A stretch of DNA of 64,000 nt from Candidatus Latescibacterota bacterium (GTDB taxonomy: Bacteria; Latescibacterota; UBA2968; UBA8231): contig OZ244561.1 in the NCBI GenBank assembly GCA_965217585.1, positions 4,224,001-4,288,000 of the forward strand. The letters are read 5' to 3'. A model generated the notes under the pieces. That model saw nothing but the letters and a program-made list of their open reading frames with translations, had not been told where the DNA came from and did not search any database. The translations under genes were made by a program, and so were the position numbers. Position 1 is the stretch's first letter; each line of letters opens with the position of its first letter. This document shows, piece after piece, positions 25,993-54,282 of this stretch.

Positions 25993-26015
25993 CTCAATTG
26001 AGAGGAAAACAGGAT

Positions 26016-28783: not shown

Positions 28784-31071
28784 AGTGCCCGTACTTTCGC
28801 CATTTCGGTTTGCATATTGACCAGCCGGCGATAGACGCCGTCCTCCATATTGAGCAACTCTTCGTGGGTGCCGACCTCGGCGATGCGCCCTCTTTCTAAC
28901 ACCAGCAGTCGGTCGGCGTTTTTGAGCGTCGAGAGCCGGTGGGCGATGGCAAAGGTGGTGCGCCCGGTGACTAGCCGCTCAAGCGCCTCTTGGATCTCGA
29001 ATTCGGTTTGGGTATCGACCGAGGCGGTGGCCTCGTCGAGGATCAGGATGCGCGGGTTGCCGATCAGGGCGCGGGCAATGGAAATGCGCTGGCGCTCGCC
29101 GCCGGAGAGCCGACCGCCGCGCTCGCCAACTTGGGTGTCGTAGCCATCGGGAAAATTCATGATGAACTTGTGGGCATTGGCCGCGCGGGCCGCCTCGATG
29201 ACTTCTTGGCGCGTCGCGTTGGGGTGGCCGTAGGCGATATTGCTGGCGATGGAGCCTTGGAAGAGCAACGGCTCTTGCAAGACCACGCCGATTTGGTTGC
29301 GCAGCGCCTGCTGTTTGAGCCGGGTAATGGGCTGGCCGTCGATGCGGACTTGGCCGTCGGTGGCGTCGTAGAACCGCGAGATGAGGTTGACCAAGGTTGA
29401 CTTGCCAGCGCCGCTGGGGCCAACGATGCCGATCATCTCGCCGGGTTGGGTCTTAAAGTGGATGCGGTCGAGAATGCGCGCCGAGCCGTCGTACGTGAAG
29501 CTGACGTTGCGGAATTCTACTTCGCCTGTAAGCGGGCCGGGGTCGATAGCGTCGGGGTCGTCTTGGACTTCGGGCTCGGTGTCGATGATCTCGAAGACGC
29601 GCTCGGCGGTCGTCGCTGCGGTCTCTAGCTGCTCGGTGAGGTTACACAGCGAGCGCACGGGCGCGTAGAACATGACCATGTACGAGATAAAAGCCTGCAA
29701 GTCGCCCAAGGTCAGCGTGTTGCTGAGTACCCGGTTGCCGCCAAACCACCACAGGACGATCGAGCCGACCGAGGTTATAAAGGCGATCGTCGGGATGTAA
29801 TAGGAGCGCATCTTGAAGGCGGTCATCTGCGAGTCGCGCAGGTCTATATTGCGCTCGTTGAAGCGGTCGAGCTCGCGGTTTTCTTGGGCAAAGGCCTTGA
29901 CGACCTTGACGCCGGGGATGGAGTCGGCGAGCATGGAGTTGAGGGTGGCAATGCGGCGCCATATCCGGTGGAAAATCCAGTGGATGCGGTTGCGGTAGAT
30001 GATGGTGCCGACGATCATGAAGGGGATTGGGATCAGCGACAAAAGCGCCAATTCCCAATTCATTACAAATAGCATCGTGCAGATGCCGATGATGGTCAGC
30101 CCGTCGATGATAATGTCTTGGAATCCCGAGGTGATAAAGCTGCGCATGCGCTCGGTGTCGCTGGTAACGCGAGTCATGATCCGCCCAGTGCTGAGCTGGT
30201 TGTAAAACGTCAGCGACAGCAATTGCAAGTGTTGGAAAATTTGCATCTGCAAATCGTACACGACGCGCTGGCCGAGCCACCCTAGGGCGTACATCCGCAC
30301 GCCGCTGATGATGCTGCGGCCGATATAGATACCGAGCAGGCCGAGCACTACCCACAGCAGGAGTTGGACGCTCCAGTCAGGGGCCGAGGTCGCCTCGCCC
30401 TCGATGATACCCGCTTTCTCGTATTCGACGAGGACAGGGACGATGAGATCGTCGATGAGGATGCGGTTGAGCTGGGGCGGCAGCAGGCCGATGGCCGTCA
30501 GCACAATCGTCAGTGTGAACCCGAGCAGTGCCTTGCTTTTATAAGGCTTGATATAGGAAAACAACCGCCAGAAGGTCTCGGTCTGGCGCAAGCAGTTGGG
30601 GCAGACTTTGGAGCCGGAGCGGAGGGCGCGTCCGCAGGTGGAGCAGTGCTCTACTACTTTGACTGGATCGACCTGCGGCGGCCCGTCCTCTTCTGCGTCT
30701 TCTTCCTCGACCAAGCCAGCGCCTTCAATGGCTTGGGGCACGCCGGAGAATTTGTAGTACGCACTCTGCGAAAAGCGCAGCAGCTCGACGGTCTCATCCT
30801 CCAGCTCGACGACGAGGGCACCGCTGCCCACGTAGTTGCGGGTCTGGATGCCTTGCACTTCGTCCAAACCGAGGCGCACGGTCTCGGGCTTATCTGCGCC
30901 ATTGGGATGAAAGACGAGCATCCGCTCGTCGGTGAGCGCAAACCAAGAGTCGCCGTACTGCCCGTCGGGGCGAATGTCGGCGGCGAGAAGGACGATGAGC
31001 AGCTCACCGGGTTGCAATTCGCTGCGAATATGGGGCAATAGGCGTTCGGGTATAGGTTCGACTAGGTCCAA
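28780..31071 (-). CDS. ABC transporter, fused permease/ATPase, with N-terminal PH-like domain and CxxC..CxxC ribbon
   Basis: [30 protein letters not shown]; 6-TM domain; CSTC..CPNC; TTG start. Confidence 0.92.
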
Positions 31072-39946: not shown

Positions 39947-42121
39947 TCAATCGCTCGGCAGTGTCGGTTCCAGTGGGATGGCTTGTCCCGCTTCCAGCAC
40001 CGCGCCGACCTCGCCGCGCAGCCGCTCTTTGAGCGTGGTGTAGCGCTGGGTGACCTTGTCGTTGGCAATGGCCAGCTTGAGGGCCTTGGGGGTGCCGACG
40101 ATGACAATCATTTGTTTGGCGCGGGTAATCGCCGTGTAGAGCAGGTTGCGCTGGAGCATCACGTAGTGCTGAGTCGTCAACGGCAGCACCACCACGGGAA
40201 ATTCCGACCCCTGAGAGCGGTGGATGCTGATGGCGTAGGCGAGGGTGAGCTGGTCGAGATCGACTTGATCGTATTCCAAGGTGTAGTCAAAGCGCACGTA
40301 GAGGACCTGCTTTTCTGCGTCGAGCCGCTCGACCGTGCCGATGTCGCCGTTAAAAACGCCCTTGTCGTAGTTGTTTTTGACCTGCATGACCTTGTCGCCC
40401 ACCCGGAACTCAGCCTCCCGATGGCGGTGCGCCTGACCGTGCGGGTTGAGGCGCTGTTGCAGCCGCTGATTGAGGTTGAGCGCACCGGTCTCACCTCGGT
40501 ACATGGGCGAAAGCACTTGGATGTCGGCGCGTTGATCCCACCCCCGATAGCTGGGCAGCCGCGTGGCGCACAATTCCTCCACCAGCTCGACCACCCGCTC
40601 CGGGTCGCCTTCTTGGAGGAAGTAGAAATCCGCGTCCGCATGGTTCTCAACGATGGGCATTTCGCCGCTGTTGATGCGGTGCGCGTTGCGGATGATGTGG
40701 CTTTTTTGGGCCTGGCGAAAAATCTGCGTCAGGCGCACCACCGGCACTTGTGCAGAGTCGATGACATCGCGGAGTACGTTGCCCGGCCCCACCGAGGGCA
40801 ACTGGTCGATGTCGCCGACTAGCACTAGCCGAGCGTGGTCGGGCAGGGCGCGCAGGAGCGCGTTCATCAGCACCACGTCGATCATGGAAGCCTCATCGAC
40901 GATCAGCGCGTCGACTTCGAGGCGGTCGTCGTAGCCCTTTTTGAATTGCCGCTCGCCCGGCTGAAATCCCAGCAGCCGATGAATGGTCTTGGCCTCGCGT
41001 CCGCTGGCCTCGCTCAGTCGCTTGGCGGCGCGGCCCGTAGGCGAGCACAGCCCGACCTTGAGGCCACCTTCCTCCAAGAGGTGCAAAATGCGCCGCGTGA
41101 CCGTAGTCTTGCCGGTGCCCGGCCCGCCGGTTAGCACCAGCACTTTGCTGGTGGCAACCAGTTCCACGGCTTGTATTTGCGCCGGGGCCAATTCCAGCCC
41201 GTCCTCCGCTGCTGCGGGCACGGCCAATGCTTCGGCCGGTGCTTGCAAGAGCCGCTTTAGCGACGATGCTGCACCCACTTCGGAGCGGTGGAGTGGCGGC
41301 AGATAGTAGCGCAGATCTTCGGTGACTGCTCCGTCGCTGGTGCGCAGGGCCTCTAATGCCGGCGGCAACAGCTCGGCGTTGATTTCCAAAATTTCGACGG
41401 CCCGCTCCATCATTTCGACGGCCGGCAGGTACACGTGGCCTTCGTCAGCCGCTTCGGAGAGCAGGTAGCGGATACCGGCCTGCACGCGCTCGGGTGCATC
41501 GTGGCCCAGGCCCAAGCGCTGGGCAATGCGATCGGCGATGCGGAAGCCGATCCCATCCACATCGCGCTCTAGGCGATAGGGATCGCTGCGCACCTTTTGA
41601 ATGGCCTCTTGGCCATAGGTCTTGAAGATTTTTACCGCGTAGCCGGTGGTAATCCCGTGCGACTGCAAAAAGACCATCACGTCCTTGATTTGCCGCTGCT
41701 CGTCCCAAGCCTCGGCAATCAGCTCGACTCTCTTCTTGCCCAGCTTGGGCACTTCCGCTAGCCGGTGGGGGTCCGCGTCGATGATGTCGAGCGTTTCCGC
41801 GCCAAAGTGCTCGACGATGCGCTTGGCCGATCTCGGCCCGACGCCTTTGATCAAACCGGACCCGAGGTACTTTTGCATCCCTTCGAGGGTCGAGGGATAA
41901 ACGGTCTTATAGCGCTCCACCTTGAGCTGTTTGCCGTATTTGGGATGATTGGTCCACACGCCTTCGACTTCGATGCTCTCGCCCTCTTGGATGGAGGCAA
42001 TCGCCCCCACGATTGCGATCCGCTCCCGCTGGCCCTCGACGACTAAGCGCGCAATGGTATAGCCGTTTTCCGGGTTGTGGTAGGTCAGGCGATCTATAAA
42101 GCCTTTATACGATTGGTTCAT
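39947..42121 (-). CDS. recD2: ATP-dependent RecD-like DNA helicase RecD2
   Basis: HPKYGKQ, YLGSGLIKGVG, GIGFRIAD, TGGPGTGKTT, PTGRAAKR, DEASM, QLPSVGPG, TQIFRQA, IHRSQGSEF, YTAITRAK. Confidence 0.95.
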   Translation of the reverse strand: MNQSYKGFIDRLTYHNPENGYTIARLVVEGQRERIAIVGAIASIQEGESIEVEGVWTNHPKYGKQLKVERYKTVYPSTLEGMQKYLGSGLIKGVGPRSAKRIVEHFGAETLDIIDADPHRLAEVPKLGKKRVELIAEAWDEQRQIKDVMVFLQSHGITTGYAVKIFKTYGQEAIQKVRSDPYRLERDVDGIGFRIADRIAQRLGLGHDAPERVQAGIRYLLSEAADEGHVYLPAVEMMERAVEILEINAELLPPALEALRTSDGAVTEDLRYYLPPLHRSEVGAASSLKRLLQAPAEALAVPAAAEDGLELAPAQIQAVELVATSKVLVLTGGPGTGKTTVTRRILHLLEEGGLKVGLCSPTGRAAKRLSEASGREAKTIHRLLGFQPGERQFKKGYDDRLEVDALIVDEASMIDVVLMNALLRALPDHARLVLVGDIDQLPSVGPGNVLRDVIDSAQVPVVRLTQIFRQAQKSHIIRNAHRINSGEMPIVENHADADFYFLQEGDPERVVELVEELCATRLPSYRGWDQRADIQVLSPMYRGETGALNLNQRLQQRLNPHGQAHRHREAEFRVGDKVMQVKNNYDKGVFNGDIGTVERLDAEKQVLYVRFDYTLEYDQVDLDQLTLAYAISIHRSQGSEFPVVVLPLTTQHYVMLQRNLLYTAITRAKQMIVIVGTPKALKLAIANDKVTQRYTTLKERLRGEVGAVLEAGQAIPLEPTLPSD

Positions 42122-42130
42122 GTGCCGTGC

Positions 42131-42751
42131 TCACAACATGAAAGCATTGTACAGTAGTGCCGTGCTCCCCGCGCCCAGCGCGCCGCCCGCGCCGAGTTGC
42201 ATCGGAGTATGCGCCCGCAAGTAAAGCCGCGCCCAAGCGACGGCCGGCCAACTCAGCAAGAAGGGCCACGCCGCACTGCCGACGCTGACCAACAATATGC
42301 AGGTCGCCCCCCCGACGCCAGCCGCGTGAATGCTGATTTTATAGGAGCGATTGATCCACCAGACCAAGAGCGTGTTGACGACACAGGACGCGGCCGTGAC
42401 TAGCATCAGGGGCGGGGCACTGATCCCGTAGAGGGCCGCCCCCCCCAAAGCGTAGCAACAAGCGCCCAGCAAGAGCAGGGTAGCGCGCTTGTCGCGGTCA
42501 TCTGTATAGGCTTTATCGAGATACCCCGAGCGCACCAAGTGCCAGAGTAGTAACCCGGGCACCACAGAGAAGGTGCCAATGGCCACCGCGCCGGCGAGCC
42601 AGTCGCCCAGCACGCGCGCTTGGACGCCGAAGACCAAGAGCGCCAACAGCGCAGGATTGAGCAAGTGGGAGAGGAAGCGTGCGACGCGGTGCGGGTGCAG
42701 ACGAAAAAAGGGACGAGCTAATTGCTCGCCCCTCGTTACTTCTTTTGCCAT
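42131..42751 (-). CDS. PAP2-like small membrane protein
   Basis: About 6 TMs; KISIHAAG and WARLYLRAHT motifs resembling PAP2 C2/C3. Confidence 0.65.
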   Translation of the reverse strand: MAKEVTRGEQLARPFFRLHPHRVARFLSHLLNPALLALLVFGVQARVLGDWLAGAVAIGTFSVVPGLLLWHLVRSGYLDKAYTDDRDKRATLLLLGACCYALGGAALYGISAPPLMLVTAASCVVNTLLVWWINRSYKISIHAAGVGGATCILLVSVGSAAWPFLLSWPAVAWARLYLRAHTPMQLGAGGALGAGSTALLYNAFML

Positions 42752-43167
42752 TTTTTTCCGCTAGCCGTGCCGCGGTCGGGCGGCCTGTCTTCGCCTGCTA
42801 GCACAAAGCCGACAAAGCGCTTCTGGCCAAGAGTTTTCAAATATTGGAGCAGGGAGACCTCGGCCTCCTTGCGGTTGAGTTGGTACTTTTCGCTGAGCAA
42901 TTCGATCATCTTACCGACCGAGTTGCGGCCGTTGCACATCCGCCAGACCTCGCTGCCGACCTCGTCGAGGGTGATTTTGCGCTGCCTGGGTATGTAGAAA
43001 AACTTGGACAGCAGCCGCACCTTCCAGGTCTCTTGGCGCTTTATTGAGACCTGGACCTCGTCGTTGTCGTTGTTCTCCCAGCTCAGGGACTCATTGCGCG
43101 TTGGCCGCGACGCCAGCATGGCGGCCCGGCTCAGCTTGGGTCCCTTGTCTTTCGATAAAATGCCCAT
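42736..43167 (-). CDS. PqqD-family protein (RiPP recognition element fold)
   Basis: ITLDEVGSEVWRMCNGRNSVGKMIELLSEKY..AEVSLLQYLKTL..KRFV. Confidence 0.82.
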   Translation of the reverse strand: MGILSKDKGPKLSRAAMLASRPTRNESLSWENNDNDEVQVSIKRQETWKVRLLSKFFYIPRQRKITLDEVGSEVWRMCNGRNSVGKMIELLSEKYQLNRKEAEVSLLQYLKTLGQKRFVGFVLAGEDRPPDRGTASGKKWQKK

Positions 43168-44083
43168 CTACTACCTTGGCGACTAGCTCGTCTGCTGTGT
43201 CTTTCTTGCGGTAGAGGTGCTCGACGATGAATATCTTGTCGAGGCTGGCATCGCGCCAGACGCGCCCTCGCAGATACAGGCGCGGCCTCGGGTTCATAAA
43301 GGGCAGGGGACGGATCAACTGACGCCAACGGCTGCGCGGCCGCCCCTCGACGCGAATGCCCTCGTGTTCCTGCACGGCCTCTGGATCAATGTCCACCACG
43401 AAGTCGCGCAATTGCTTCTTAAAAAAGACCGGATACCAGTCTTGAACGTGCGCTTCTTTGAGCATGATCCGGGCCATGCTCAACCGATGCACCCGTAGAA
43501 CCTGTTTACCGAGAGTGAACTCTAGCTGGATGTGGCCCGACTTGAGGGAATGGCTTTGTAGCTTGAGGTCGCTGGGCGCGAAAAACCGCAAGCCGTACAC
43601 GCTCCACATATAAGCGGCCTCGGCTTCTTGGTCGGCGAGCGAGCGGAACACGGCCTCGGCTTGCTCGGGCAAGGACTCGTCTAGTCTGGCCAGCACTCTC
43701 AGGAGCACTACCCGCCCGGACTTCAAGGCGAGCGCTAGATTGTACGCGCGGAAGTCGGCCTCCCAGATGAAGACCTCGTATTCGCGGCCTTCGAGGAATT
43801 TCTTGTTTTTGAGGAATCGGGCGCGGCGCTGGACCTCAAAGGGGGCATCGACCTTTTGGGCCTTCTTTTGCAGGTTGGCCAAGTAGCGATCTACCAACTC
43901 GGTCAGGCGCAGGGCCTCGCCGCGGCCTTTGAGACGCCGCCATTCGATTTCGGCACGCACGATTTCGGCGTCGTCGAGGCGGGCATAGCCCTTTTCAAAA
44001 TCCCCGTCAACTCGGCCGAGATTCCAGTCGTCAGGCACGGACAACCGCAGCCCTTGCCAAGCGAAATCCACCCGATCGCTCAT
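43091..44083 (-). CDS. Hypothetical cytoplasmic protein (330 aa), two similar halves
   Basis: Starts 1 nt after the OPT-like stop; halves begin WQGLRLSVP and VYGLRFFAP; 77-nt overlap with the PqqD gene. Confidence 0.75.
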   Translation of the reverse strand: MSDRVDFAWQGLRLSVPDDWNLGRVDGDFEKGYARLDDAEIVRAEIEWRRLKGRGEALRLTELVDRYLANLQKKAQKVDAPFEVQRRARFLKNKKFLEGREYEVFIWEADFRAYNLALALKSGRVVLLRVLARLDESLPEQAEAVFRSLADQEAEAAYMWSVYGLRFFAPSDLKLQSHSLKSGHIQLEFTLGKQVLRVHRLSMARIMLKEAHVQDWYPVFFKKQLRDFVVDIDPEAVQEHEGIRVEGRPRSRWRQLIRPLPFMNPRPRLYLRGRVWRDASLDKIFIVEHLYRKKDTADELVAKVVDGHFIERQGTQAEPGRHAGVAANAQ

Positions 44084-44084
44084 G

Positions 44085-46505
44085 CTAGAAGATCAGCACG
44101 GAGACCGATTTCTGGATCAGGGCGATCCCCACCGCCGCCATGCCCATCAAGGCCATGCCGCAGGAAAAGCCCACCGCCAGAATCGGGGCAAACAGCCGCC
44201 ACTCTTGCCGCCCGTACTTGTTCCAGAAGTAGTAGCGAGCCAAGAGCGCGCCGATGATCTCGGTCACCACGAAATGCGGCAGTTGCGTCAGCGAGCGCAC
44301 GAAGCCAAAGATCAGCAGGATCGGCAGCCCGAGGATGGAGAGCAGAATGAAACTCACCAGCCCGAAGCCGGCACCAAAGGCGATGACCTCTAGTTTCAGT
44401 GCCCTAAAGAGCCAAGGCACGTCGGTGGATCGCTGGATCCAAGAGCTGGTAAAGAGCGGGTCGGTATCGACCTCAAAGTAGAAGAACCATCCCGCCGGCA
44501 CGGCTCGCTCGATCTTCACTTCGAGGGTCGGGCGGGGATCGCGGATGACGGTGTCCATAGCCGGTCCCAAGGGCGCAATCGCCGGCAGACCCGCGACAAC
44601 TTCATCTTCGACTAGCAGCTCGTCGCGCAGGTAGCGCTCGGCGACGATGTCGGGTGCCCCTTGATCGAAGTACGAGTAGAAAACTTGGGTCGGCATCCAC
44701 GGACCGCCTTGGCCGCGCTTGCCTTCGGAGTCCAGCCATTCCTGATCCACCAGCCGCGTCCGCCAGTACCACCACTCGTTATCGATTAGATTGGCCGGAG
44801 TCCATCCCGCGCGGTCGTTGTCTACGGCCAGTTCGCTGCGCATGGTGCCGGTGATATAGAGGCATTGCTGGTAGGCGCGCAGCCGCCAGATGAGCTGGGC
44901 ATAGGGGTAGGAGGCCGAAGGGATCGGTGCCAGTTTCCAGATATAGGAGCCGTAGAGAAAACTGGTAAAGAGCACGACGGGCACCATGAAAATCTCGGCG
45001 CGAATGATGCTGGTAAACTGGGTGCCGGTCAGTTCGATTTCGCGGAACTTCTGGGTCTGGGCACCGTAGTTACCCAAGGGAAACGGAATGAACCAGATGT
45101 CAACGCCGCGATACCCAGAGAAGATAATCGTCGCCTCGCGCACGAAGGGGATGTCCACCGTCTGTCCCACCATCCCGACTAGGCGGGCGTTGACGAAGGA
45201 TTGAAAGGGCGTGAATACGAAACCAAAGAAGAGGAAAAACCATATAAATTGAGCAATGCCCGGCAGCAGCCAAGCGGCGACGCCGATCAGGCCGGCCGTG
45301 GCTAAAGAGTACAGTGCCAACGCCAACCAGATGGGGAAATCGCCGCGGCCGGCGGGGGTGGCAAAGCTGCGCTTGGGACTGCCATCATCCCCGTTGTTAG
45401 CCCTAGCACTGAGCACGCTCTGAACTATCTGATAGATGCCGATGACGGCGATGGCGAAGGTAGTGCCGAGGCCAAAGCTCATCCAGAAATCGACTTGGTT
45501 GACGAAGACGGTCTCGATCGTGCCCATGCCTTGCTGCCACAAGTTCAGATACGGCATCTCGCGCCACGAAGGCGTCCAAGTATAGAGCAGCGGGTTGGCA
45601 ATGGAGGCGACGACCACGCCGATAAAGGTGCCAATCACGCCCCAGAACGGCACCACTAAACCGACGAATATCGGCCCCAAGTGCGCGGTAAATCCCAGCG
45701 GAGTGGCCGGGATAAAGTTGCCGGTGACTTGCGTGAAGTCGACAAAGGGAATGGGTATGAGTTGGATTGGTTCGGTCAGCAGCGCGCCGGTAATCGCCGG
45801 CAGGGCCACGTAGATCGTGCCAAAGACCAAGCCGATCATCGCCCCTGCCGAGAATACCCGCCAGCGCCACGTCTCAACCCCTTGGGTGGTCTCAGCTAGC
45901 GCCATAGCGCCTTGGGCGTTTACGGGTGCGAAGGGAAAGGGCAGACGCTCGTAGTCGGAGGTGAGCCGGAAGAGCGCGTACGACATAGTGAACCAGTTGA
46001 TGCGCGAGATGATCATCCCCAAGACTAGGAGTACGATCGGCATCGCCCAATCCGAGTGTAGGAAGGTGCGCTCGAGGATGGCGGCGGAGTTGAGCGGCGG
46101 TGCCACCCAAGTGGGGATCAGCTTGGTGATGCCGAACTGCTTGGCCGCCGGCGATTGCACCAAGTACTGGTTGTAGAGCAATCCCTCAAAGGCGCCGGTC
46201 TCCGCGGCAATCAGCGAGGCGGCCACGTAGAACAGCACATAGACTTCTTGGCGCCGGAGGGTGGAAAAGGAGCGCTTGGTGATTTCGGCGAAGAGGATGA
46301 TAGTCACCCACTCGGCCGCCGCCCCCAAAGAGCCACCGATCATCAGGCTCAAGTACATGTTGCCCGGCACCATGATAAAGGCGACGAAGAACACGCCGAG
46401 GATGGCCTTGATCGTAAAGCCGTTCTCGAAGTGGTCCGGGACCTGCATTAAATCCCGATATTCTTCGATCTCTTGGTTCGGGTTTCTATTTTTGCTTCCG
46501 AGCAC
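44085..46505 (-). CDS. OPT-like (oligopeptide transporter superfamily) membrane protein with periplasmic insertion
   Basis: GTG start with GGAGG RBS; GFTIKAILG, LRRQE, ERLPFP, WKLAPIPSASYPYA; many TMs. Confidence 0.72.
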   Translation of the reverse strand: MLGSKNRNPNQEIEEYRDLMQVPDHFENGFTIKAILGVFFVAFIMVPGNMYLSLMIGGSLGAAAEWVTIILFAEITKRSFSTLRRQEVYVLFYVAASLIAAETGAFEGLLYNQYLVQSPAAKQFGITKLIPTWVAPPLNSAAILERTFLHSDWAMPIVLLVLGMIISRINWFTMSYALFRLTSDYERLPFPFAPVNAQGAMALAETTQGVETWRWRVFSAGAMIGLVFGTIYVALPAITGALLTEPIQLIPIPFVDFTQVTGNFIPATPLGFTAHLGPIFVGLVVPFWGVIGTFIGVVVASIANPLLYTWTPSWREMPYLNLWQQGMGTIETVFVNQVDFWMSFGLGTTFAIAVIGIYQIVQSVLSARANNGDDGSPKRSFATPAGRGDFPIWLALALYSLATAGLIGVAAWLLPGIAQFIWFFLFFGFVFTPFQSFVNARLVGMVGQTVDIPFVREATIIFSGYRGVDIWFIPFPLGNYGAQTQKFREIELTGTQFTSIIRAEIFMVPVVLFTSFLYGSYIWKLAPIPSASYPYAQLIWRLRAYQQCLYITGTMRSELAVDNDRAGWTPANLIDNEWWYWRTRLVDQEWLDSEGKRGQGGPWMPTQVFYSYFDQGAPDIVAERYLRDELLVEDEVVAGLPAIAPLGPAMDTVIRDPRPTLEVKIERAVPAGWFFYFEVDTDPLFTSSWIQRSTDVPWLFRALKLEVIAFGAGFGLVSFILLSILGLPILLIFGFVRSLTQLPHFVVTEIIGALLARYYFWNKYGRQEWRLFAPILAVGFSCGMALMGMAAVGIALIQKSVSVLIF

Positions 46506-46518
46506 TCGCTAGCCTCCC

Positions 46519-49500
46519 TTACGCCGACACTTCGCTGCGCAGCCCTTGCAGAATTTCCGCGCCCTGTTGGCGGTAGCCTTCTTTGGCCTCGGCATCCACC
46601 GTGCGCCAGATGAGGAACTGTTTGCGGATGACGTTCATAAAGCGCTGGTTGACCCTCCGCCACGAGGCGTCCTCGCCGCTGAGTCGCTTGATTTGCAGGC
46701 CGACTGCGTAAATGTTGTGCTCGGCCTCTGGCATGGCCTGCACGGTGACGTGTTGGCTGACGCCCAAGTCGAAAGGAGCCAGCCAGATATTCATGTCGAT
46801 GAGGTACCCTTCGCCGTTGGGCGTTTCTTCGCGTCTCAAGCTGGCACCGTCGGTGTAGAAGGTGCCGATGGACTCCTCACTGTAGGAGTCGAAGTAGCCG
46901 ATGAGGAATACGCTCAAGCCCAAGACCTCGTGGCCGCTGACCGTAAAGGGGAACTCGAAATCCCACTGGTCACCGTCGGGCGGCGGCAGCTTCCACTTGC
47001 GGGTCACGTCCGGCACGGCCATCTGCGAAGCCTTGCGCGCTGGATAAATCGTCGAGAGCATGACCACGGCCATCACCAGCATACAGGACAGCACCGCTGC
47101 TACTGAGGAGTAGTTGAGCGTGAAGCCGCCCAGCAGATCGAACTCGATGAGCACTTTGGCGATTACTTGGCCGCTGAGATAACCAGCGACGACGCCCAGC
47201 ACCGAATAGACGCAACTCTCGGCGATAAAGAGCCAAGAGATATGGCCGGGGGCTAGGCCCACCGAAGAGTAGATGCCGATTTCGCGGAAGCGCTCGTACA
47301 CGCTGCCCATCATGGTGTTGAGCACGATCAGCGAGGCGATCAGCATGGGGATAAACAAGTTGCTCATGCCGGAAAAGGAGGTCAGCCCCAGCGATGAGTA
47401 AATCGCCACCTTGATGTATTCATCGCCGGGCTCCTTGACTCCGGCGAACAGCGTCACCGCGAGGCGCGCGAGAAACTCCTCGACCTCGCCGCGCACGTCG
47501 GTGCCCCCGGGAAAGCGCACGGCCACCGATTGCAGGGGGTTGCCGCTGCCGACGTTGCGCAGCGTGTGGTAGGGCGTGATTAGGATGTTGGCCGGTTCTA
47601 GATGGACAAAGGGCTTGATGACGACCTTGGCGTCCTCCAAGCCCTGCTTTTCGCGCTTTTCTTCCTCGGCGATTTCCTGTACGGCTTGGCCGCCGGTGAC
47701 GGCGAAGTCGGCTGGCGTCAGGATTTCATCGTCGAGGTCTTTGAGGTCCTTCATCCGCTTGGAGTCGAGGACGCCAACGACCGTGAACAAGTCGCCGAAG
47801 ACCCTGACTTTCGCTCGGCCGACATCGGCTAAGTCAATGTCGAGATGGGCCTCCTTAACCATGTCGATGGGCAGGATGCAAACCTTGTCCTCGCCCGGCC
47901 CAAACCACCGCCCGGCGACTAGGGCTTGGTCCAGCCCGGTGACCTCGGTTTCCTCCGGGGTCAATCCGAGGACACCGAGCGCGTTATGGGCCTTGTCACC
48001 GTGTTTTATTTTGATGTGCGCCTTGGCCTTGTTGCTGTACCAGCTGCGCGGTGCGACCGCGGCCCGATCACCGAAATTGCTGCGGGCGTATTCGAGCACG
48101 GAATCTTCCATCGGATTCCATGCCTTGCTGCGGATTAGGATGCCTTCGTAGAGGCCCTCGTTGTCGCGGCTGATTTGGTTGAACCGCAGGCCCGTGCGGA
48201 TGGAGGTGAAAGACAGCACCGTAAAGGTCAGCAGCAAGAGCGTGGTAAAGGTGAGAACCGTGCGCGTCTTGCGCCGCTTCATGTTGGAAATCCCGAGCTC
48301 GAAGGCCGTTACCGAAGCCGAAGAGCGGCTGACGTCCGTGTCGTGGATCACGGCCACCTCGGTGCGCAGCTTTTTCATCTGCTCGTTGAAGCGGCCGGAA
48401 ATGATCGACATCACGAGAGCGGCCAGCGCGATGATGATGAAAGCGAGCAGAATGACGAAGGGATTGGATAGCTGAAAGGCCGGATGCACCATCCACAGCA
48501 CGATCCAGATCACTAGGAATACCCCGACGAATCCGATGATCTGATTGCGGATCGTGGCGGCGGAAAAAATGAGTCGCTCGGTAAAAAAGGCGCAGGGAAT
48601 GACGAGGGCCATAAAGAAGATAATGCCCTGAACGACGTCGTTTTGGGTGGATTTGACGTCTGGATAGGCGCGCGACTCCAGCCCAAAGGCCGCGCGCGTG
48701 TGACGCACAAAGTCGCGCCAACGCAGCTCGGCACCCGCCGTCGCGGCTTGAGCTAACTCGGTCTCGGCCCGGTAGTGGAGATCGTTGAGACGCTGGTTCT
48801 CAATCGCAAAGCTCCGCAACTCGCGCATCCGCGACTCGTCGAGATTCCACATGTCTTGGGCGGCTTGGAAGGTCGTGCGGGCAAAGGAAGTACCGGGGCG
48901 GATCTCAAAGCCCTCGCCCTCGGCCTTGTCTTTGTCGGTGGCACTGGTGGAGTTGAGCAGCAGCGAGCGAAATCCCAGCAGGCCAGCGCCAAAACCCATC
49001 TTGACGCGCGAGCCGGGCCGCGCGAAGAGCACCCCAACCGGCTCGTTTTGGGCCGAGGGGCCTTCGCCGATGGTGTAACCGTACTCCACGGGTGCGCCGT
49101 TTGTCTCGTCGAAGACCGCCACGTTGGATAGCTTGGTGAGATAGCGCGGATCGACGATGTCGAAGAAGTTGTAGGGCACGCAGGGGAAGAGGATGACCAT
49201 CCACTGCTTGTCGCGCCAGTCCATGGAGACCCTCATCGGGTAGCTCTCGTCGCCTTGCACGCCGCGATCCGGGGCGTAGGTGATGCGGCCGGTGATCGGG
49301 TCCATGTAGTAGCCCTCGATCTGCACGTTGTTGACCCGCACCCGATTTACGTAAAAGGCCCCCTTATCATCGACGACCTCGTAGTACTCGCCGCGCACGC
49401 CTTTGTACGACTTTTTCTTGCCGTTGCGCACGACGGCCACTGCGTCTGCACGCGGTAGGTCGGGGATGATGCTGCGGCGCGGAAAGACCATGGTCCGACC

Positions 49501-51348
49501 GCGCAGCGAGCGCAGATTGTCGCGCAGGCGCATCTTGAAGTCCGGGAAAAGCTCTGGGTCTTCAAAGGCCATCTCGAACATGCCGGCGAGCACCCGGATC
49601 TGTTTGGCGAGATTGGCGTGGTTGACGTGCTCGGCTCGATCTAAGGGCGTATCGACGAGGAAGCGCGCATCGTTGACGGTGACAAAGGCCAACGCCGGCG
49701 TACCCGTCGCCAACACCAATTCGCTATTGACCGATATTTCGCCCGGCACAAAGGTCTGCCAGCTCATCCCGCCTTCGGGACTGATGCCATTGACCAACAC
49801 GTCGCGCCGCTGGTAGCCCAACTCGCGGCTGATCTTGCGCGCATAACCCATAAAGTTCTTGCCGAAGGGCGCGAAGTAGCGCTTGTAGTAAAAGCTGGTA
49901 TTGCTATTCCATACTCCGAGCTCGTCGGTCTGCGACGACAGGTCGAGGCTGATGAAGAGCTTGACCGCGAGCGAATCGACTTTGGGATCGACCCAGCGCT
50001 TGTAGAGCGCAAGGCGCAAGTCGTCGTCCGAGTGCAACTCATCAACCAGTTCGTCGCGGTTTTTGAATTGCTTGCCGGCGAGGTGCAGTGCGCCTTCTTC
50101 TCGACTCAGCAGCCCCTTAATGCCCTCTATTGTCTTCTTCCACAAGCCCCACGAACTGCTGGCTGCGTCTTCCTCTTGGCTCAGCAGCCCTTCGGCGAGT
50201 GCGGCGTCGGCAATGTGCGCGGCCAAGTCGGTACGTCCTTCGGCAACGCTCCGCACGAGGGCTTCCTTGCCGGTAAACTCCTCCTCCTCGCCGATGGCGT
50301 AGTGGATGCCGTCTTGGGCGACCATGTTCCGCGCAAGTGCGGCATCGACGACCCGCCGTACCAGCATGTGTTCGATAAAGGGATCCTCTTTGCGCAAATA
50401 GCGCTGGATGAAATCATCGACCCCGCGCAGGCCCAAGTGGTGCGCCGAAGTGGCGAGAAAGACGATCGTGCGCGCCGGTGGGTTGGCGCGAAAATAGCGC
50501 GCCAGCTCTAAAAGCGCAGTAATGCTGGAGGCCTGCTCGGCACCCGGGGCGAGGGCTGGCACGACCGACATGGCGTCGTAGTACGCCTCCAGCACGATTA
50601 CGTCTTCTTTCAGCAAGGGATCGTATCCGGGGATCGTGCCGAGGATATTCCAAGCAGAACGCCGCTCCCAATCCATGCGGTACTCGAGGTGGAGCGTCTG
50701 CTCGCCCGCGGCGGCCAACTGGTGGCGCAAGTGATGGCCGGCTTGGCGATTGATCCAGAACCTCGGCAGGTCGAGCGGCATGGAGAGGAACTTTTTTTCG
50801 CCCTCCAGGTACACGGTGGAGTCCGGCTCGATAAAGAGGATGGCCTGCGCCCCGAGATAGGCGGCATTGAGCCAAGCGTCGCCCGAATTGAAGTCCATCA
50901 GGGCCACGGCTCCTTCGACTTGTTTGCCGTCCATGTCCGCGTACTCGCCCGCGCCGGCGTCGATCAAGCGCCCGGTCACCCCGCCTTCGGGCAGCGTCGA
51001 GGTTTTGACTAGATTGGGCCAGAGGCCGTGGATTGGCACTGATTCGTCGCTGCCGACGACTTGCAGAAACCCACCCTTATCGACCGGAATCGAGACATCG
51101 TATTCGTGGATTGCGATGTCGTCGAGGCCGATTGCACGGAAGCGCTCCTGCACGATCTGGGCCGCTTGGTCGGCACCTGGGTAGCCGGCGATTCTAGATC
51201 CCAAGCTGGCAAAGGTGTCCATCGTCTGCTGCACGCGCTCGACTGGGGTCGTGCGCGCCAACTCGGCAAAATCGACCTCGGCTTGGGCTAGTGTTGCGCC
51301 GGCCAGAACCCAGCCGAAGGCCATCCACCTCACCGCGAACTTAGGCAT
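46519..51348 (-). CDS. Giant M28-peptidase-like + PA + FtsX/MacB-like permease fusion (about 1609 aa)
   Basis: Signal peptide from ATG 51348; SRIAGYPG, PA domain, NILGTIPG..VLEAYYD; TM bundle; NMKRRKTRTVLT, FTVVGVLD, MGSVYERFREIGIYSSVG, YPARKAS (FtsX signatures). Confidence 0.85.
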   Translation of the reverse strand: MPKFAVRWMAFGWVLAGATLAQAEVDFAELARTTPVERVQQTMDTFASLGSRIAGYPGADQAAQIVQERFRAIGLDDIAIHEYDVSIPVDKGGFLQVVGSDESVPIHGLWPNLVKTSTLPEGGVTGRLIDAGAGEYADMDGKQVEGAVALMDFNSGDAWLNAAYLGAQAILFIEPDSTVYLEGEKKFLSMPLDLPRFWINRQAGHHLRHQLAAAGEQTLHLEYRMDWERRSAWNILGTIPGYDPLLKEDVIVLEAYYDAMSVVPALAPGAEQASSITALLELARYFRANPPARTIVFLATSAHHLGLRGVDDFIQRYLRKEDPFIEHMLVRRVVDAALARNMVAQDGIHYAIGEEEEFTGKEALVRSVAEGRTDLAAHIADAALAEGLLSQEEDAASSSWGLWKKTIEGIKGLLSREEGALHLAGKQFKNRDELVDELHSDDDLRLALYKRWVDPKVDSLAVKLFISLDLSSQTDELGVWNSNTSFYYKRYFAPFGKNFMGYARKISRELGYQRRDVLVNGISPEGGMSWQTFVPGEISVNSELVLATGTPALAFVTVNDARFLVDTPLDRAEHVNHANLAKQIRVLAGMFEMAFEDPELFPDFKMRLRDNLRSLRGRTMVFPRRSIIPDLPRADAVAVVRNGKKKSYKGVRGEYYEVVDDKGAFYVNRVRVNNVQIEGYYMDPITGRITYAPDRGVQGDESYPMRVSMDWRDKQWMVILFPCVPYNFFDIVDPRYLTKLSNVAVFDETNGAPVEYGYTIGEGPSAQNEPVGVLFARPGSRVKMGFGAGLLGFRSLLLNSTSATDKDKAEGEGFEIRPGTSFARTTFQAAQDMWNLDESRMRELRSFAIENQRLNDLHYRAETELAQAATAGAELRWRDFVRHTRAAFGLESRAYPDVKSTQNDVVQGIIFFMALVIPCAFFTERLIFSAATIRNQIIGFVGVFLVIWIVLWMVHPAFQLSNPFVILLAFIIIALAALVMSIISGRFNEQMKKLRTEVAVIHDTDVSRSSASVTAFELGISNMKRRKTRTVLTFTTLLLLTFTVLSFTSIRTGLRFNQISRDNEGLYEGILIRSKAWNPMEDSVLEYARSNFGDRAAVAPRSWYSNKAKAHIKIKHGDKAHNALGVLGLTPEETEVTGLDQALVAGRWFGPGEDKVCILPIDMVKEAHLDIDLADVGRAKVRVFGDLFTVVGVLDSKRMKDLKDLDDEILTPADFAVTGGQAVQEIAEEEKREKQGLEDAKVVIKPFVHLEPANILITPYHTLRNVGSGNPLQSVAVRFPGGTDVRGEVEEFLARLAVTLFAGVKEPGDEYIKVAIYSSLGLTSFSGMSNLFIPMLIASLIVLNTMMGSVYERFREIGIYSSVGLAPGHISWLFIAESCVYSVLGVVAGYLSGQVIAKVLIEFDLLGGFTLNYSSVAAVLSCMLVMAVVMLSTIYPARKASQMAVPDVTRKWKLPPPDGDQWDFEFPFTVSGHEVLGLSVFLIGYFDSYSEESIGTFYTDGASLRREETPNGEGYLIDMNIWLAPFDLGVSQHVTVQAMPEAEHNIYAVGLQIKRLSGEDASWRRVNQRFMNVIRKQFLIWRTVDAEAKEGYRQQGAEILQGLRSEVSA

Positions 51349-51365
51349 AATTGTAAGTGCCTTTC

Positions 51366-53336
51366 TCAGATCCAGAAGACCACATTGTCGGTCATACCCA
51401 TAAAAAAGTCGATAATCAACCAAAGCCCGGCGATGAAAAACTGGCCTATGATCAGGCCTAAAAAGAAGGGACGCGCCCGGCGAAAAAGGCTGGGACCGCC
51501 GTATTTCATCGCCAATAGCTTTAAGAGCCAAGCAAGGGCAATGCTAAACCACAACTGATCCATCAGCCATACGGCACCAATGGGGTATCCAATGGGATGC
51601 AGAGGCCACCACAAGAGCCGCTGGCGCGCCCACATGAGCAGGGCCATGATGCCCCCGCCGACAAAAGTGTGAATCCAGCCATCGATGTTCGGCTTGGTGG
51701 GCGCGCTTAACTTGGTGGTAATATAATCAAAAGGGGCGCGAGTTCCACCACCAAAAAACCACCCGTTGAGATTGATGCCGCCGTATTCGTAGGCGAGGTA
51801 CAAAATCGCTGCGACCGAACCGACAATGCTGACAAAAATCGCCAGCAGCATGTACCAAAAAAGCGGTCGCAGCCGCGGCCCCAGTTCTTCGCCCAGCTTG
51901 AGGCCGTGTGCGCAGGAAGCCATGACAAACGTGCGGATATCCGCCGCCCACACATAGGTGTACGCAAGGCCCACCATGCCCGCCGGTCCGATCGCCGAAG
52001 AGCCTACGGCCGAGACCAAGGCCGACGAAGAAATCATCGGCCCGACTGCCGCTGCCACGCCCCCCTCTACTACCACTCGGGTCAGGCCGATGAAGATAAG
52101 AATGGCCAGCATCAGGGTCAAAAGGGACGCCCACAGCGGCAAGCCGGACTGCCACAGCCAGATGGTCATCACCGCGACTCCGGCGAGCCAGGTTAAGACC
52201 GCCGCCCGGTAGGACAGCATCTCGCCGCGGTCGTCGATGCGGTCGTCGCCCGTGAGGGCCTTGCGCAGTACGTCGCGCAGGTGTTCGCGGCCGACCCATA
52301 GGCCGAAGAACACTAAGACGATCATCGCCCCCTGCCCTTGGTGGGCGAGAATTGGCTCGCTAGGAGCGCCGTAAATGCCCAGCTTTTCGGTGCTGCCGAC
52401 TCCTAAAACCCCCAGCCCCCCTCGGATCAGCTTGGCGATGGTGTTGAAAAACCACAGACTGAAGGCGATGTCGAGGTTGATTAAATAGGCGAACCCCACC
52501 ATGGGAAAGCTCAGGCGGAAGATCAGGCTGACGGTATTGCGCAGGATCGGAACGGAGGAGACGAGCTGGATGGCGGGAATGAAGTTGAAGTACGCGTGTA
52601 GGGCGTTGAGGCTGCTGACGAGCACAGGCAAGGCAAAGCCGATCCACATGATCGGGTTTTTGAAGAAAGGACCTAGCGCCTGTCCGCGGTCTCCGCTCTC
52701 CACCATGGCCAAGGGCACTTGCACCAGCGGGTAAACTAGCCGCTCCCGCTCCACCCACTGGCGGCGCAGAATGACCATAGACGAGATCATAACCAAGTAC
52801 AGGGCCACGATCAGCACGGCCCAATAGCACAGCGGGCCACCCCAGACGGCCCAAGGCACCCCAGCGGTGCGCGGTGCTCCTTCGTAAAACCACTTGATCG
52901 ACTCGGGATCCTGCGGCGCGATCCACTCGGGAAGGTGCGGCAGGATGTGCAAGGCCCACTCGTTTTCCGGGGTGGCGTAGTACTGAGCGCCGGTGATGAT
53001 CGTCAGCCAGTACTCGCTGAGGCCCATCGTGGGGATGGCCGAGGCCGTGAGCATCATAATGTACGCGACGATGAGCTCGCAGCGCCCGAGGGCCACAGGG
53101 GCGGCGAAGCGAGTCAGCAAGGCGTTGAACAAGCCCGTCAGCACGAAGAAGAGGAACAGGGCACCCGCCGCGCTGAAATCAATCGACATGTAGGAGCCGC
53201 GGATGACCATATTGCCGTACGGTGCCCCCACGGCGATGCACAGTGACCCTAGGGTGCCCGCCACCAGCGCTTTGGCGCTGAAGACCGGCTCGGCTCGTAC
53301 TGGGGCCTGAGAGGTAGGCTCTTTCGACAAATCCAT
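51366..53336 (-). CDS. DUF6785/DUF6784 polytopic membrane protein
   Basis: QWVERERLVYP, FFKNPIMWIGF, AHQGQGA, LSYRAAV, WWPLHPIGY, KYGG..RPFFLGLIIG. Confidence 0.8.
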   Translation of the reverse strand: MDLSKEPTSQAPVRAEPVFSAKALVAGTLGSLCIAVGAPYGNMVIRGSYMSIDFSAAGALFLFFVLTGLFNALLTRFAAPVALGRCELIVAYIMMLTASAIPTMGLSEYWLTIITGAQYYATPENEWALHILPHLPEWIAPQDPESIKWFYEGAPRTAGVPWAVWGGPLCYWAVLIVALYLVMISSMVILRRQWVERERLVYPLVQVPLAMVESGDRGQALGPFFKNPIMWIGFALPVLVSSLNALHAYFNFIPAIQLVSSVPILRNTVSLIFRLSFPMVGFAYLINLDIAFSLWFFNTIAKLIRGGLGVLGVGSTEKLGIYGAPSEPILAHQGQGAMIVLVFFGLWVGREHLRDVLRKALTGDDRIDDRGEMLSYRAAVLTWLAGVAVMTIWLWQSGLPLWASLLTLMLAILIFIGLTRVVVEGGVAAAVGPMISSSALVSAVGSSAIGPAGMVGLAYTYVWAADIRTFVMASCAHGLKLGEELGPRLRPLFWYMLLAIFVSIVGSVAAILYLAYEYGGINLNGWFFGGGTRAPFDYITTKLSAPTKPNIDGWIHTFVGGGIMALLMWARQRLLWWPLHPIGYPIGAVWLMDQLWFSIALAWLLKLLAMKYGGPSLFRRARPFFLGLIIGQFFIAGLWLIIDFFMGMTDNVVFWI

Positions 53337-53371
53337 TGAGATGATCTAAAGAAAAGGTCTATACATTTATA

Positions 53372-53893
53372 TTATTGGCCCTGGTCCAACCAGCCTATTT
53401 TTGCTAGTTGTTCCAAGGTCCACCAAGCCAAAAACCCGATCACTCCTCCGCTGACCAAAGCGCTGAACAAGGCCAGCGGCAACAGTGCGAACAGACCGCT
53501 GTGGCCGATATAGCCAGAGGCGAGGACGAGCTGGCTGAGCTGGTGCGCCAACGCGCCCCAGATGCTCAGACCCACGACGCTGAAAAGCCGCGCTCCCATG
53601 CGGCGGACCGCAACCATGACCAACCAGCTCGCCAAGCCAGCCCCACCGCCAATGACAAAGGCCGGACCGGCAAATCCCCCGCTGAGCAAGCCGCCAGCTA
53701 CGAGCTTGATGGCACTAACGGCCAACGCCGGACCGCCGCCAAAGCTCACCAGCGCGACCAAGACCGGCAGATTGCCGAGCCCCAACTTCATCCAGGGCAA
53801 GGGTTTGGGCACCAGCGCTTCAAAGGCGAAGAGCACGATTGCCGCACTGGCTATAAGCCCCAAACGGGCCACGTCTCTAGGCTGCGCAAACAT
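53372..53893 (-). CDS. Gx transporter family (heptaprenyl diphosphate synthase component I-like)
   Basis: EALVPKPLPWMKLGLGN, SVVGLSIWGALAHQLSQL; ATG overlaps the upstream stop (TGATG). Confidence 0.85.
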   Translation of the reverse strand: MFAQPRDVARLGLIASAAIVLFAFEALVPKPLPWMKLGLGNLPVLVALVSFGGGPALAVSAIKLVAGGLLSGGFAGPAFVIGGGAGLASWLVMVAVRRMGARLFSVVGLSIWGALAHQLSQLVLASGYIGHSGLFALLPLALFSALVSGGVIGFLAWWTLEQLAKIGWLDQGQ

Positions 53894-54282
53894 CAGCGAA
53901 TCATCGCGTCTATGGGCGCGGCTCCAGCGATCCTCAGCACTAGGCCGTTGGGCACGCACGCGGCTACGTCGCCCGCCTGCCGCATCCAGCCCTGCCGCAT
54001 GCAGATCTTGTGGACGCAGGGCGCGGAAATCACGCGCACCCCCTTGGGGCCGATCTCGATTTCGCTCGCTCCCAAAGGTCCTACAACCGGCAAGACCCCG
54101 TAGCTGGAGAGGGCATGTGCGGCGGGCGCGGCCCCTGCCAACTCGACGATGAGCACGCCGCCGGCCTCGGCCGTGTAGCGGCCGTAGAGTACCAGCCCGA
54201 TCGCACTCAAGCCCACGACGAGCGCGAGGATTTTATCCGCTCGCGTCAACGCCGGTGCGTTTTCGGTATTTAGCCGCCACAT
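53893..54282 (-). CDS. NusG domain II-containing membrane-anchored protein
   Basis: N-terminal TM; GPLG..EI..VRVISAPCVHKICMRQGW..ACVPN. Confidence 0.85.
   Translation of the reverse strand: MWRLNTENAPALTRADKILALVVGLSAIGLVLYGRYTAEAGGVLIVELAGAAPAAHALSSYGVLPVVGPLGASEIEIGPKGVRVISAPCVHKICMRQGWMRQAGDVAACVPNGLVLRIAGAAPIDAMIR

Follow-up and report, generated by a model that had tools for sequence, protein, structure and literature searches.

A giant FtsX-type permease and its OPT-fold partner in Candidatus Latescibacterota: probable components of a split type VII ABC machine

RESULTS

A probable split machine with a detached motor

The stretch of DNA analysed here (the window) comprises 64,000 nt of the genome of a Candidatus Latescibacterota bacterium (contig OZ244561.1, positions 4,224,001-4,288,000). 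It carries on its minus strand the gene of a 1609-aa permease of the FtsX type, hereafter the giant, followed by the genes of an 806-aa membrane protein (P806), a 330-aa protein (P330) and a small PqqD-like protein, and preceded by that of a membrane protein with DUF6785 and DUF6784 domains. By its composition, this locus is likely to belong to a split type VII ATP-binding cassette (ABC) machine, the MacB/LolCDE/FtsEX class also known as 'mechanotransmission' systems, with a motor encoded at a distance. The complete reading that we prefer, in which the locus is the substrate-facing part of such a machine and is coupled to a carrier of the OPT fold by the mechanism proposed in the Discussion, is put forward tentatively, at a little less than even confidence.

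No ATPase of the type that serves FtsX permeases was found in the locus, and the sole ABC_tran domain of the window belongs to an exporter fused to ABC_membrane at 28780-31071. A preliminary description of this DNA had accordingly proposed an ion-driven machine free of any ATPase, a proposal contradicted by the relatives of the locus. Scanning of one genome per species returned 583 relatives of the giant, from which 80 loci were kept as the synteny set (L numbers). In 10 of these 80, a small FtsX protein (sFtsX; 214-255 aa, FtsX domain alone) and an ABC_tran ATPase (243-305 aa) are clustered with the giant (L100, L103, L105, L106, L107, L109, L112, L114, L116 and L124), the PqqD gene being present in four of them; all ten lie within the 22 most distant of the 80. 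The order giant-P806-[P330]-[PqqD]-sFtsX-ABC occurs in L100, L103, L105, L114 and L124, with P330 and PqqD missing from L103, and the order sFtsX-ABC-giant-P806 in L107 and L112, while the contigs of L106, L109 and L116 stop just past the giant. The complete order giant-P806-P330-PqqD-sFtsX-ABC is found in L129, from another phylum.

When the rest of the genome was searched with queries from the distant loci for an orphan LolD/MacB-type ATPase, as the preliminary description had suggested, one orthologue together with sFtsX appeared 375 kb from the locus: a 233-aa sFtsX at G000:C1:4649594-4650295 and a LolD/MacB-class ATPase at G000:C1:4650316-4651089. Both stand well apart from the other candidates of the genome, with 211 bits for sFtsX vs 47 for the next FtsX protein and 403 bits for the ATPase vs 271 for the next ATPase. 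The Walker A motif, the LSGGQ signature and the D-E pair of the ATPase are intact, and sFtsX has four transmembrane (TM) segments with an outside loop of only ~45 aa. The best NCBIfam matches of the ATPase were LolD, the MacB nucleotide-binding domain, DarD, YbbA, FtsE and DevA, all below their equivalog cut-offs, and sFtsX scored higher on the MacB and LolCE models than on those of FtsX. There is no large permease beside the pair, whose neighbours are RmlD, two GT2 glycosyltransferases, TauE and S8 peptidases. An ATPase of the same type is also encoded directly upstream of DUF6785-giant-P806 in four Latescibacterota loci (L081, L093, L096 and L097). The sFtsX/ATPase pair is presumably common to all seven giant paralogues of the genome, and by analogy with LolC/LolE it would dock on the giants so that two unlike FtsX halves come together.

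A machine made from the six genes first noted in the window and driven by ions independently of any ATPase would fit with the absence of an ATPase gene from the locus and from the 10 kb around all 27 orthologous-type loci (0/27, and equally 0/27 for sFtsX), as well as with the nature of OPT carriers as secondary transporters. It is nevertheless very improbable, given that the genome holds an orthologous sFtsX/ATPase pair with intact motifs, which co-occurs with the giant and is clustered with it in other phyla.

As a separate observation on FtsX permeases in this genome, ~20 tandem genes for ADOP-like permeases of ~790-846 aa, with two FtsX domains each, form a 48-kb array (G000:C1:2848000-2896000) that holds at least one ABC ATPase.

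The giant permease

The open reading frame (ORF) of the giant spans 46519-51531, and its likely true start is a signal-like MPKF at 51348, which gives a protein of 1609 aa (46519-51348) and restores a gap of 17 nt to the gene upstream. Pfam detects M28 (35.8 bits, covering profile positions 1-79 of 193 only), MacB_PCD (33.1, cut-off 27) and FtsX (56.7, cut-off 25.5). From hydropathy and Pfam, the protein would consist of a signal-like N-terminus, an M28-like pseudo-peptidase with a PA domain, ~350 aa of unassigned periplasmic sequence and three TM segments, followed by a MacB-type module (TM1, MacB_PCD, TM2-4) and a conserved cytoplasmic tail of 165 aa bearing the conserved motif WLAPFDLGVSQ. 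Neither the tail (residues 1445-1609) nor the middle region (residues ~560-900) had a Pfam match at E up to 10, and an atlas search with the C-terminal 170 aa gave no usable match. Compared as a profile with PDB sequences, the N-terminal 330 residues match the PA-domain M28 aminopeptidases 2ek8 (E 5e-15) and YwaD (6hc6), and the C-terminal module matches MacB, YtrF, LolC and LolF; Nicalin appeared as a weak match (E 6.5e-5, ~75 residues).

The preliminary description had called the peptidase domain a pseudo-M28, and the alignment to 2ek8/6hc6 agrees: YYD stands in place of HHD, PGA-EQ in place of GAnDD and SAH(F) in place of GAEE, and these replacements are invariant in all seven giant paralogues. 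We take the residues concerned to be the ligands of the two zinc ions and the catalytic Glu (H, D, E-E, D/E, H). With these positions lost, the M28-like domain is a predicted pseudo-peptidase.

The seven giants of the genome are 36-47% identical and share the whole architecture. One of them is fused in frame to DUF6785 (L039:7655-14008, 2118 aa). Long ORFs in L126, L128 and L129 were also considered as possible fusions of this type and rejected, being longer giants or over-extended ORFs instead. Giants 92-95% identical to that of the window occur in other Candidatus Latescibacterota. The giants of L061, L063, L069 and L076, 67-68% identical to it, stand alone, with P806, DUF6785, P330 and PqqD absent within 10 kb; at least L061 and L076 share contigs with the full loci L065 and L060, respectively, and these lone giants look like partnerless duplicates.

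P806, the constant membrane partner

P806 is encoded at 44085-46505. Its profile found nothing among PDB sequences at E up to 1, and evidence on its nature came from the AlphaFold2 model (pLDDT 77.4). The sole significant Foldseek match of this model was barley Yellow Stripe 1, YS1 (7wst/7wsr, E 1.6e-8, probability 1.0). VIA-align, which is independent of Foldseek, aligned it to 7wsr_A with Z 19.8 and a root-mean-square deviation (rmsd) of 4.7 over 543 residues, the next best match reaching Z 5.7. P806 is thus predicted to have the OPT/YSL fold, and the OPT-like label that it had received from its sequence holds at the level of the fold. Residues 554-694 form an Ig-like beta-sandwich insert, to which the lower VIA-align matches (Z <=5.7), themselves Ig-like domains, correspond. 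At the same position, relatives of P806 carry a PDZ domain (including the paralogue of the same genome in L044), Reg_prop propellers or WD40.

The P806 family counts 1157 representatives at E up to 1e-3 among 1.84 billion. We place the protein in the OPT superfamily and not in the family PF03169, because it has no Pfam match itself but 6 of 17 database relatives exceed the Pfam OPT cut-off; the paralogue in L044 reaches 18.4 bits vs a cut-off of 25.8.

Recurrence of the arrangement

P806 starts at most 600 nt from the end of the giant gene in 53 of the 69 loci with at least 3 kb of sequence downstream. Of the 53 fully flanked loci (5 kb or more on each side), 21 have both P806 and DUF6785, 17 P806 only, 9 DUF6785 only and 6 neither, so that one or both of these proteins are encoded within 600 nt of the giant in 47/53. 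In the 27 orthologous-type loci, P806 was found in 23, P330 in 23 and PqqD in 22, and P330 and PqqD are also retained in another phylum. These figures uphold the idea of a recurrent multi-subunit envelope system that had been drawn from the window, and the survey of neighbourhoods across genomes confirmed that the giant, the OPT-like P806 and PqqD co-occur, DUF6785 being facultative. In the genome itself, phmmer against our own ORF calls returned 76 DUF6785 proteins, 7 giants, 5 P806, 1 P330 and 1 PqqD, and each of the five P806 genes is next to a giant or no more than ~10 kb away from one. The role of P806 as the constant membrane partner of the giant is well supported.

Since the arrangement recurs in seven paralogous loci of the genome and in dozens of other genomes, it is far above chance. 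An accidental juxtaposition of unrelated membrane genes, kept by shared ancestry, would apply well enough to the outer neighbours (the Hpre_diP_synt_I, PAP2-like and RecD2 genes described below), which look like inherited synteny only. For the core it can be practically dismissed: the giant, P806, P330 and PqqD stay together across two or more phyla, where their flanking genes differ, and a giant has been fused to DUF6785.

P330 and the PqqD-like protein

P330 (43091-44083) shows no visible signal peptide. It has no Pfam match at E up to 10 and no NCBIfam match, an atlas search returned unnamed clusters only, and its 128 relatives are all unnamed or 'hypothetical'. On the basis of its AlphaFold2 model (pLDDT 85.3), Foldseek matched both domains to the type VI secretion system (T6SS) immunity proteins TplEi/Tli4 (E ~1e-5) and one of them to PsbP (TMt 0.5-0.6). 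As modelled, P330 would be a tandem of two PsbP/Mog1-like domains belonging to no described family and acting as a cytoplasmic accessory subunit.

The PqqD/RRE-like protein (143 aa, 42736-43167), also small and cytoplasmic, reaches 42.2 bits on Pfam PqqD (cut-off 23.4) and stays below the cut-offs of all PqqD-type NCBIfam models; it bears a conserved N-terminal extension with the motif ML.SRP.RNE. Its gene comes after P330 or P806 in L100, L105, L114, L124, L126 and L129. A predicted complex of P330 and PqqD scored 0.14 vs a mark of 0.32, a value that speaks neither for nor against contact. Biosynthesis of ribosomally synthesized and post-translationally modified peptides (RiPPs) was considered and rejected, the enzymes lacking nearby: radical SAM and YcaO enzymes, whose absence the preliminary description had already noted, and lasso enzymes are all absent among the 33 window proteins scanned. 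Maturation enzymes and precursor genes were found neither in the window nor in the conserved neighbourhoods of related loci, short precursor ORFs not having been searched systematically.

Co-occurrence across genomes

Of 121 Latescibacterota genomes, 108 carry the giant (at most 9 matches in any one genome), 101 carry sFtsX, always as a single copy, and 107 carry DUF6785. Giant and sFtsX are both present in 101 genomes, and sFtsX alone in 0. The 13 genomes with neither all belong to family f10 and lack DUF6785 too, and the 7 giant-only genomes are each 60-89% complete. In a second phylum, that of genome G121 and locus L107, whose gene order is that of Armatimonadota loci, 81 of 101 genomes carry the giant; P330 is present in 78/101, always in one copy and always together with the giant, and 20 genomes have neither. 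One copy of sFtsX was found in each of five further genomes tested.

DUF6785, a remote relative of P806 and facultative neighbour of the giant

The 656-aa polytopic protein encoded at 51366-53336 scores 416.1 bits on DUF6785 and 106.6 bits on DUF6784 in Pfam. Alignment of the P806 family to DUF6785 with hhalign gave a probability of 87.7% (E 3.4e-6, 190 columns), from which DUF6785 appears to be a remote relative of P806, recruited facultatively beside the giant. Many orthologous loci have no DUF6785 gene between Hpre_diP_synt_I and the giant (e.g. L054, L055, L058-L060, L065-L067, L070 and L075).

The family is strongly expanded, with 78 matches in the genome (7.32 Mb in one contig), ~1% of its genes. 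Copy numbers elsewhere are first-look candidates, since the survey scores only 11 candidates per genome; they amount to 15-88 in most class-level relatives and to 1-11 in several basal families, and none was found in a control set of 14 well-known genomes. The 392 genes lying within three positions of 76 DUF6785 copies fall into 226 clusters, the 25 largest of which were named from one or two representatives (30 proteins in total). The largest cluster (29) consists of secreted proteins with FlgD_ig, CHU_C or Por_Secre_tail ends, of the type IX secretion system (T9SS) type. It is followed by PhyH (20), an unnamed family of ~900 aa (16), TPR (15) and FG-GAP/ASPIC (13) proteins, an unnamed family of ~310 aa (11), GFO/IDH/MocA proteins (11), sulfatases (6) and aldo-keto reductases (6), with smaller clusters of enolase-superfamily enzymes (4) and short-chain dehydrogenases/reductases (4). 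This company points to a catabolic, uptake-type setting for DUF6785.

The window holds a second gene with DUF6785 and DUF6784 (10697-12688, minus strand; 420 and 94 bits) in a giant-free cluster. Its neighbours encode a 1144-aa protein with a CHU_C/T9SS-type tail (7222-10656, minus strand) and a SurA-like protein with two PPIase domains (12700-14409, minus strand). A C-terminal CHU_C type IX secretion signal domain is the sole Pfam match of the large proteins at 7222-10656, 20933-23698, 23860-25992 and 25989-28148.

Limits of the operon and neighbouring genes

The six co-directional genes on which the preliminary description was built, with gaps of 17, 13 and 1 nt and overlaps of 77 and 16 nt calculated from their coordinates, were reproduced by our ORF calls. 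The series is longer than described: eight tightly packed minus-strand ORFs extend over 39947-53959. A membrane protein of the Hpre_diP_synt_I family (PF07456; 53372-53959, 110.4 bits) is encoded upstream of DUF6785, after a gap of 35 nt, and a RecD2-type helicase (39947-42121; Pfam AAA_19, AAA_30, HHH_RecD2, OB_YrrC and SH3_13) downstream of the last of the six, after a gap of 9 nt. That last gene (42131-42751) encodes a 206-aa protein with five TM segments, and is the one domain call that did not stand beside those of DUF6785, M28/MacB/FtsX and PqqD: its PAP2 score of 18 bits (E 0.0025) lies below the cut-off of 27.2, so that the PAP2 family profile is not reached and the protein is at most weakly PAP2-like. 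A hydropathy script counted 9 hydrophobic segments in DUF6785, 7 in the giant and 11 in P806.

A hairpin resembling an intrinsic terminator (42708-42734, minus strand; 11 pairs, 7 of them G-C, then a T-run) starts 2 nt past the stop codon of PqqD and is the best terminator-like site of the region. Strong hairpins of different sequence stand at the same place in L053, L058, L059, L064, L066, L067, L068, L070, L073 and L075, with a T-run in several, and none was seen after PqqD where the sFtsX gene comes next (L105, L114 and L124). The PAP2-like gene lies 1.5-2.8 kb beyond PqqD in L053, L058, L060, L064, L066, L068, L070, L073, L075 and L111 and was not seen in the loci examined from other phyla; RecD2 accompanies it within Latescibacterota only. 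Because the terminator is conserved after PqqD and the PAP2-like gene is distant in relatives, we place the latter and RecD2 outside the system, the operon probably ending at the terminator that follows PqqD. The hairpin and the PAP2-like ORF overlap in this genus, and read-through into the latter may still occur. In 23 of the 53 fully flanked loci, the Hpre_diP_synt_I gene lies ahead of the giant or of DUF6785, and in loci from other phyla no such gene was seen next to the system; it is an upstream neighbour conserved in Latescibacterota only, and probably not a core part. From the six genes first grouped together, therefore, a recurrent core remains, with DUF6785 optional in orthologous loci and the PAP2-like gene behind a conserved terminator.

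The locus is present on RNA-library contigs of four studies, of which two bear the label sponge metagenome. One contig of 4577 nt covers 42749-47328, running from PqqD across P330 and P806 and into the giant, and others link the start of the giant with the 3' part of DUF6785; contigs that cross genes are no proof of a single transcript, as DNA may occur in RNA libraries. Contig cover is much lower or nil over the PAP2-like and RecD2 genes and most of DUF6785, depth and holes not counting as evidence. Inside the DUF6785 gene there is a sigma-70-like promoter-like site (52121-52093, minus strand), and contigs of two studies end near 51959-52004, ~90-130 nt downstream of it. Together they might hint at an internal start for the transcript of the giant, something that contigs cannot show.

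With regard to habitat, the stretch turns up in metatranscriptome and other runs from six studies, several of the runs labelled 'sponge metagenome'; in one run, 17 of 35 contigs match it at >=99% likeness. Sponge-associated communities are therefore home to the organism or to a near relative.

Elsewhere in the window, a 1552-aa protein encoded on the plus strand (35274-39932) combines DUF4011, an AAA_11/AAA_12 helicase, a REase_MTES_1575 nuclease and DUF3320, and is possibly a defence-type helicase-nuclease; its gene converges on RecD2, with 14 nt between the stop codons. The fused ABC_membrane and ABC_tran exporter mentioned above (763 aa) is followed by a DUF1854 protein (28280-31071 in all, minus strand) and is separate from the system of the giant.

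DISCUSSION

A tentative mechanism and the direction of transport

We propose that the giant acts as one half of an FtsX-type permease with a very large periplasmic head, paired with the 233-aa sFtsX and the LolD/MacB-class ATPase. Hydrolysis of ATP in the cytoplasm would be transmitted through the FtsX helices to this head, which would bind a substrate, presumably peptide-like or oligomeric, and load the OPT-fold carrier for uptake. P806 or DUF6785 would contact the giant, and the variable loop domain of the carrier, Ig-like in this case and PDZ or beta-propeller in relatives, would add to specificity. On the cytoplasmic side, PqqD and P330 might bind a peptide or the tail of a partner.

Three points favour uptake: the OPT fold, which is that of the importer YS1, the catabolic setting in which DUF6785 occurs, and the inserts of the carrier, which have ligand-binding folds; nonetheless, we regard this direction as a possibility that falls somewhat short of an even chance. 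A bolder version, in which a type VII ABC engine energises or loads an OPT-fold carrier in a hybrid transporter of a new class, and in which one shared engine serves several giants and dozens of DUF6785 carriers in catabolic clusters resembling polysaccharide utilization loci (PUL-like), making this the main nutrient-uptake platform of the phylum, appears to us unlikely. If it held, the system would be a counterpart of SusC/D in Bacteroidota and a case of primary-active assistance given to a secondary-carrier fold.

Several observations weigh against the coupling of a type VII machine to an OPT-fold carrier. P806 has no Pfam match at E up to 10 and no NCBIfam match, and does not reach the cut-off of the OPT family. 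Four of the 53 fully flanked loci show a giant without any OPT-like neighbour. The seven giant-adjacent copies of DUF6785 are scattered in the paralogue tree, so that their adjacency could be incidental; this tree (FastTree, midpoint root) suffices only to show that they do not form one clade. PqqD and P330 are absent next to P806 in the Armatimonadota-type loci L107 and L112, and P330 is also missing from three genomes of the second phylum that have the giant. Within Latescibacterota, the phyletic match depends on essentially one clade lacking everything (f10) and so amounts to little more than a single event; it is supportive without being strong alone. Finally, single-copy presence in ~80% of the genomes of the second phylum looks like a housekeeping trait and not like that of a nutrient-specific importer.

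Other objections concern the direction. RRE/PqqD domains otherwise occur in peptide maturation and export pathways, which suits export better, and the type VII ABC systems known to us all export, extract or signal, none of them feeding an importer. The same six-part machine could then be an exporter, in which PqqD/RRE and the PsbP-like chaperone bind a cytoplasmic cargo, the OPT-fold protein passes it, and the ABC head expels it or places it in the envelope. The outward action of MacB, LolCDE and DevCA, the closest PDB and NCBIfam matches (MacB, LolC, LolF, LolD, DarD and DevA), the Pfam score of PqqD, above its cut-off, and the fold of P330, which is that of protein-binding modules, are all in line with export. 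Nevertheless, none of the loci examined has a conserved precursor gene or modifying enzyme next to the system, the one solved structure of the OPT family that was matched (YS1) belongs to an importer, and neither the variable ligand-binding inserts (PDZ, propellers) nor the catabolic context of the DUF6785 relatives would be expected of an exporter. We consider export improbable.

The housekeeping distribution in the second phylum leads to another alternative, an envelope-remodelling or signalling machine of the FtsEX kind, in which movement of the giant's pseudo-peptidase head, driven by ATP, would control a periplasmic process such as cell-wall or surface-protein processing, with the OPT-fold protein as scaffold or sensor instead of carrier. 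An inactive peptidase-like domain is what Nicalin, itself among the PDB matches, also has, and the FtsX list of the genome contains no canonical FtsX of ~300 aa. Set against this, Latescibacterota genomes hold up to 9 giants and dozens of DUF6785 candidates beside catabolic genes, and sFtsX scores higher on MacB/LolCE than on FtsX models, so that such a role seems rather less probable still.

Significance

The preferred reading, in which an OPT-fold carrier is coupled to a split type VII ABC machine, concerns a system that is common and the parts of which are uncharacterised beyond their domain names. The preliminary description knew of no functional account of this combination, and in the literature listings and abstract openings that we consulted there was likewise no description of the system and no paper on DUF6785/DUF6784. 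If the coupling is true, it would represent a novel means of energising or gating a carrier fold and would provide a function for two DUF families, DUF6785 and DUF6784. There is also a lesson for annotation, in that an 'orphan' FtsX permease may have a distant motor common to several paralogues.

Comparison with known systems

Type VII ABC systems (MacB, LolCDE, FtsEX, BceAB) are a young structural class. With MacB, LolCDE, FtsEX, YtrF and LolF, the system shares the four-TM FtsX module with the MacB core domain between TM1 and TM2, an ATPase of the LolD/MacB class and, as far as the proposed pairing goes, two different FtsX-type halves as in LolC/LolE. It differs from them in the giant half, to which a PA/M28 pseudo-peptidase, three extra TM segments and the 165-aa tail have been added, the other half being a minimal protein of 233 aa. 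The motor genes are detached and single-copy, the giants multi-copy, and OPT-fold, PqqD-like and PsbP-like proteins are their constant companions; the loci examined showed no gene for a membrane-fusion or TolC-like protein next to the system. To our knowledge, no other type VII ABC system has an OPT-fold, RRE-like or PsbP-like partner.

With the OPT/YSL carriers (YS1, 7wsr/7wst; PF03169), P806 has in common the fold of the whole chain, and some of its relatives pass Pfam OPT. The known OPT carriers work alone as proton-coupled symporters; P806, in contrast, lacks a Pfam OPT match, has a soluble insert that varies among relatives, and its gene is linked to those of an ABC machine. Likewise, the PqqD-like protein resembles PqqD/RRE domains in its Pfam match and departs from them in its N-terminal extension and in the lack of a maturation enzyme or precursor in the window and related loci. 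P330 is similar in fold to TplEi/Tli4 and PsbP, at 8-17% identity, whole-chain TM-scores of 0.33-0.41 and with no T6SS context. The giant recalls Nicalin and other inactive M28-fold proteins by an M28-like domain that has lost catalytic and metal residues and is tethered to a membrane complex; the Nicalin match is weak, covers ~75 residues and comes from a different kingdom and complex, and homology of the complexes is not claimed.

The closest parallel for the sharing of a motor is provided by ABC systems in which one ATPase serves several permeases, such as MsiK of Streptomyces, which belongs with type I sugar importers that use binding proteins. One ATPase/sFtsX pair per genome vs up to 9 giants is a comparable ratio, with the difference that the shared unit would here include half of the permease. 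In these terms, the system is probably a type VII ABC transporter whose motor is detached and shared, and whose set of partners has no precedent.

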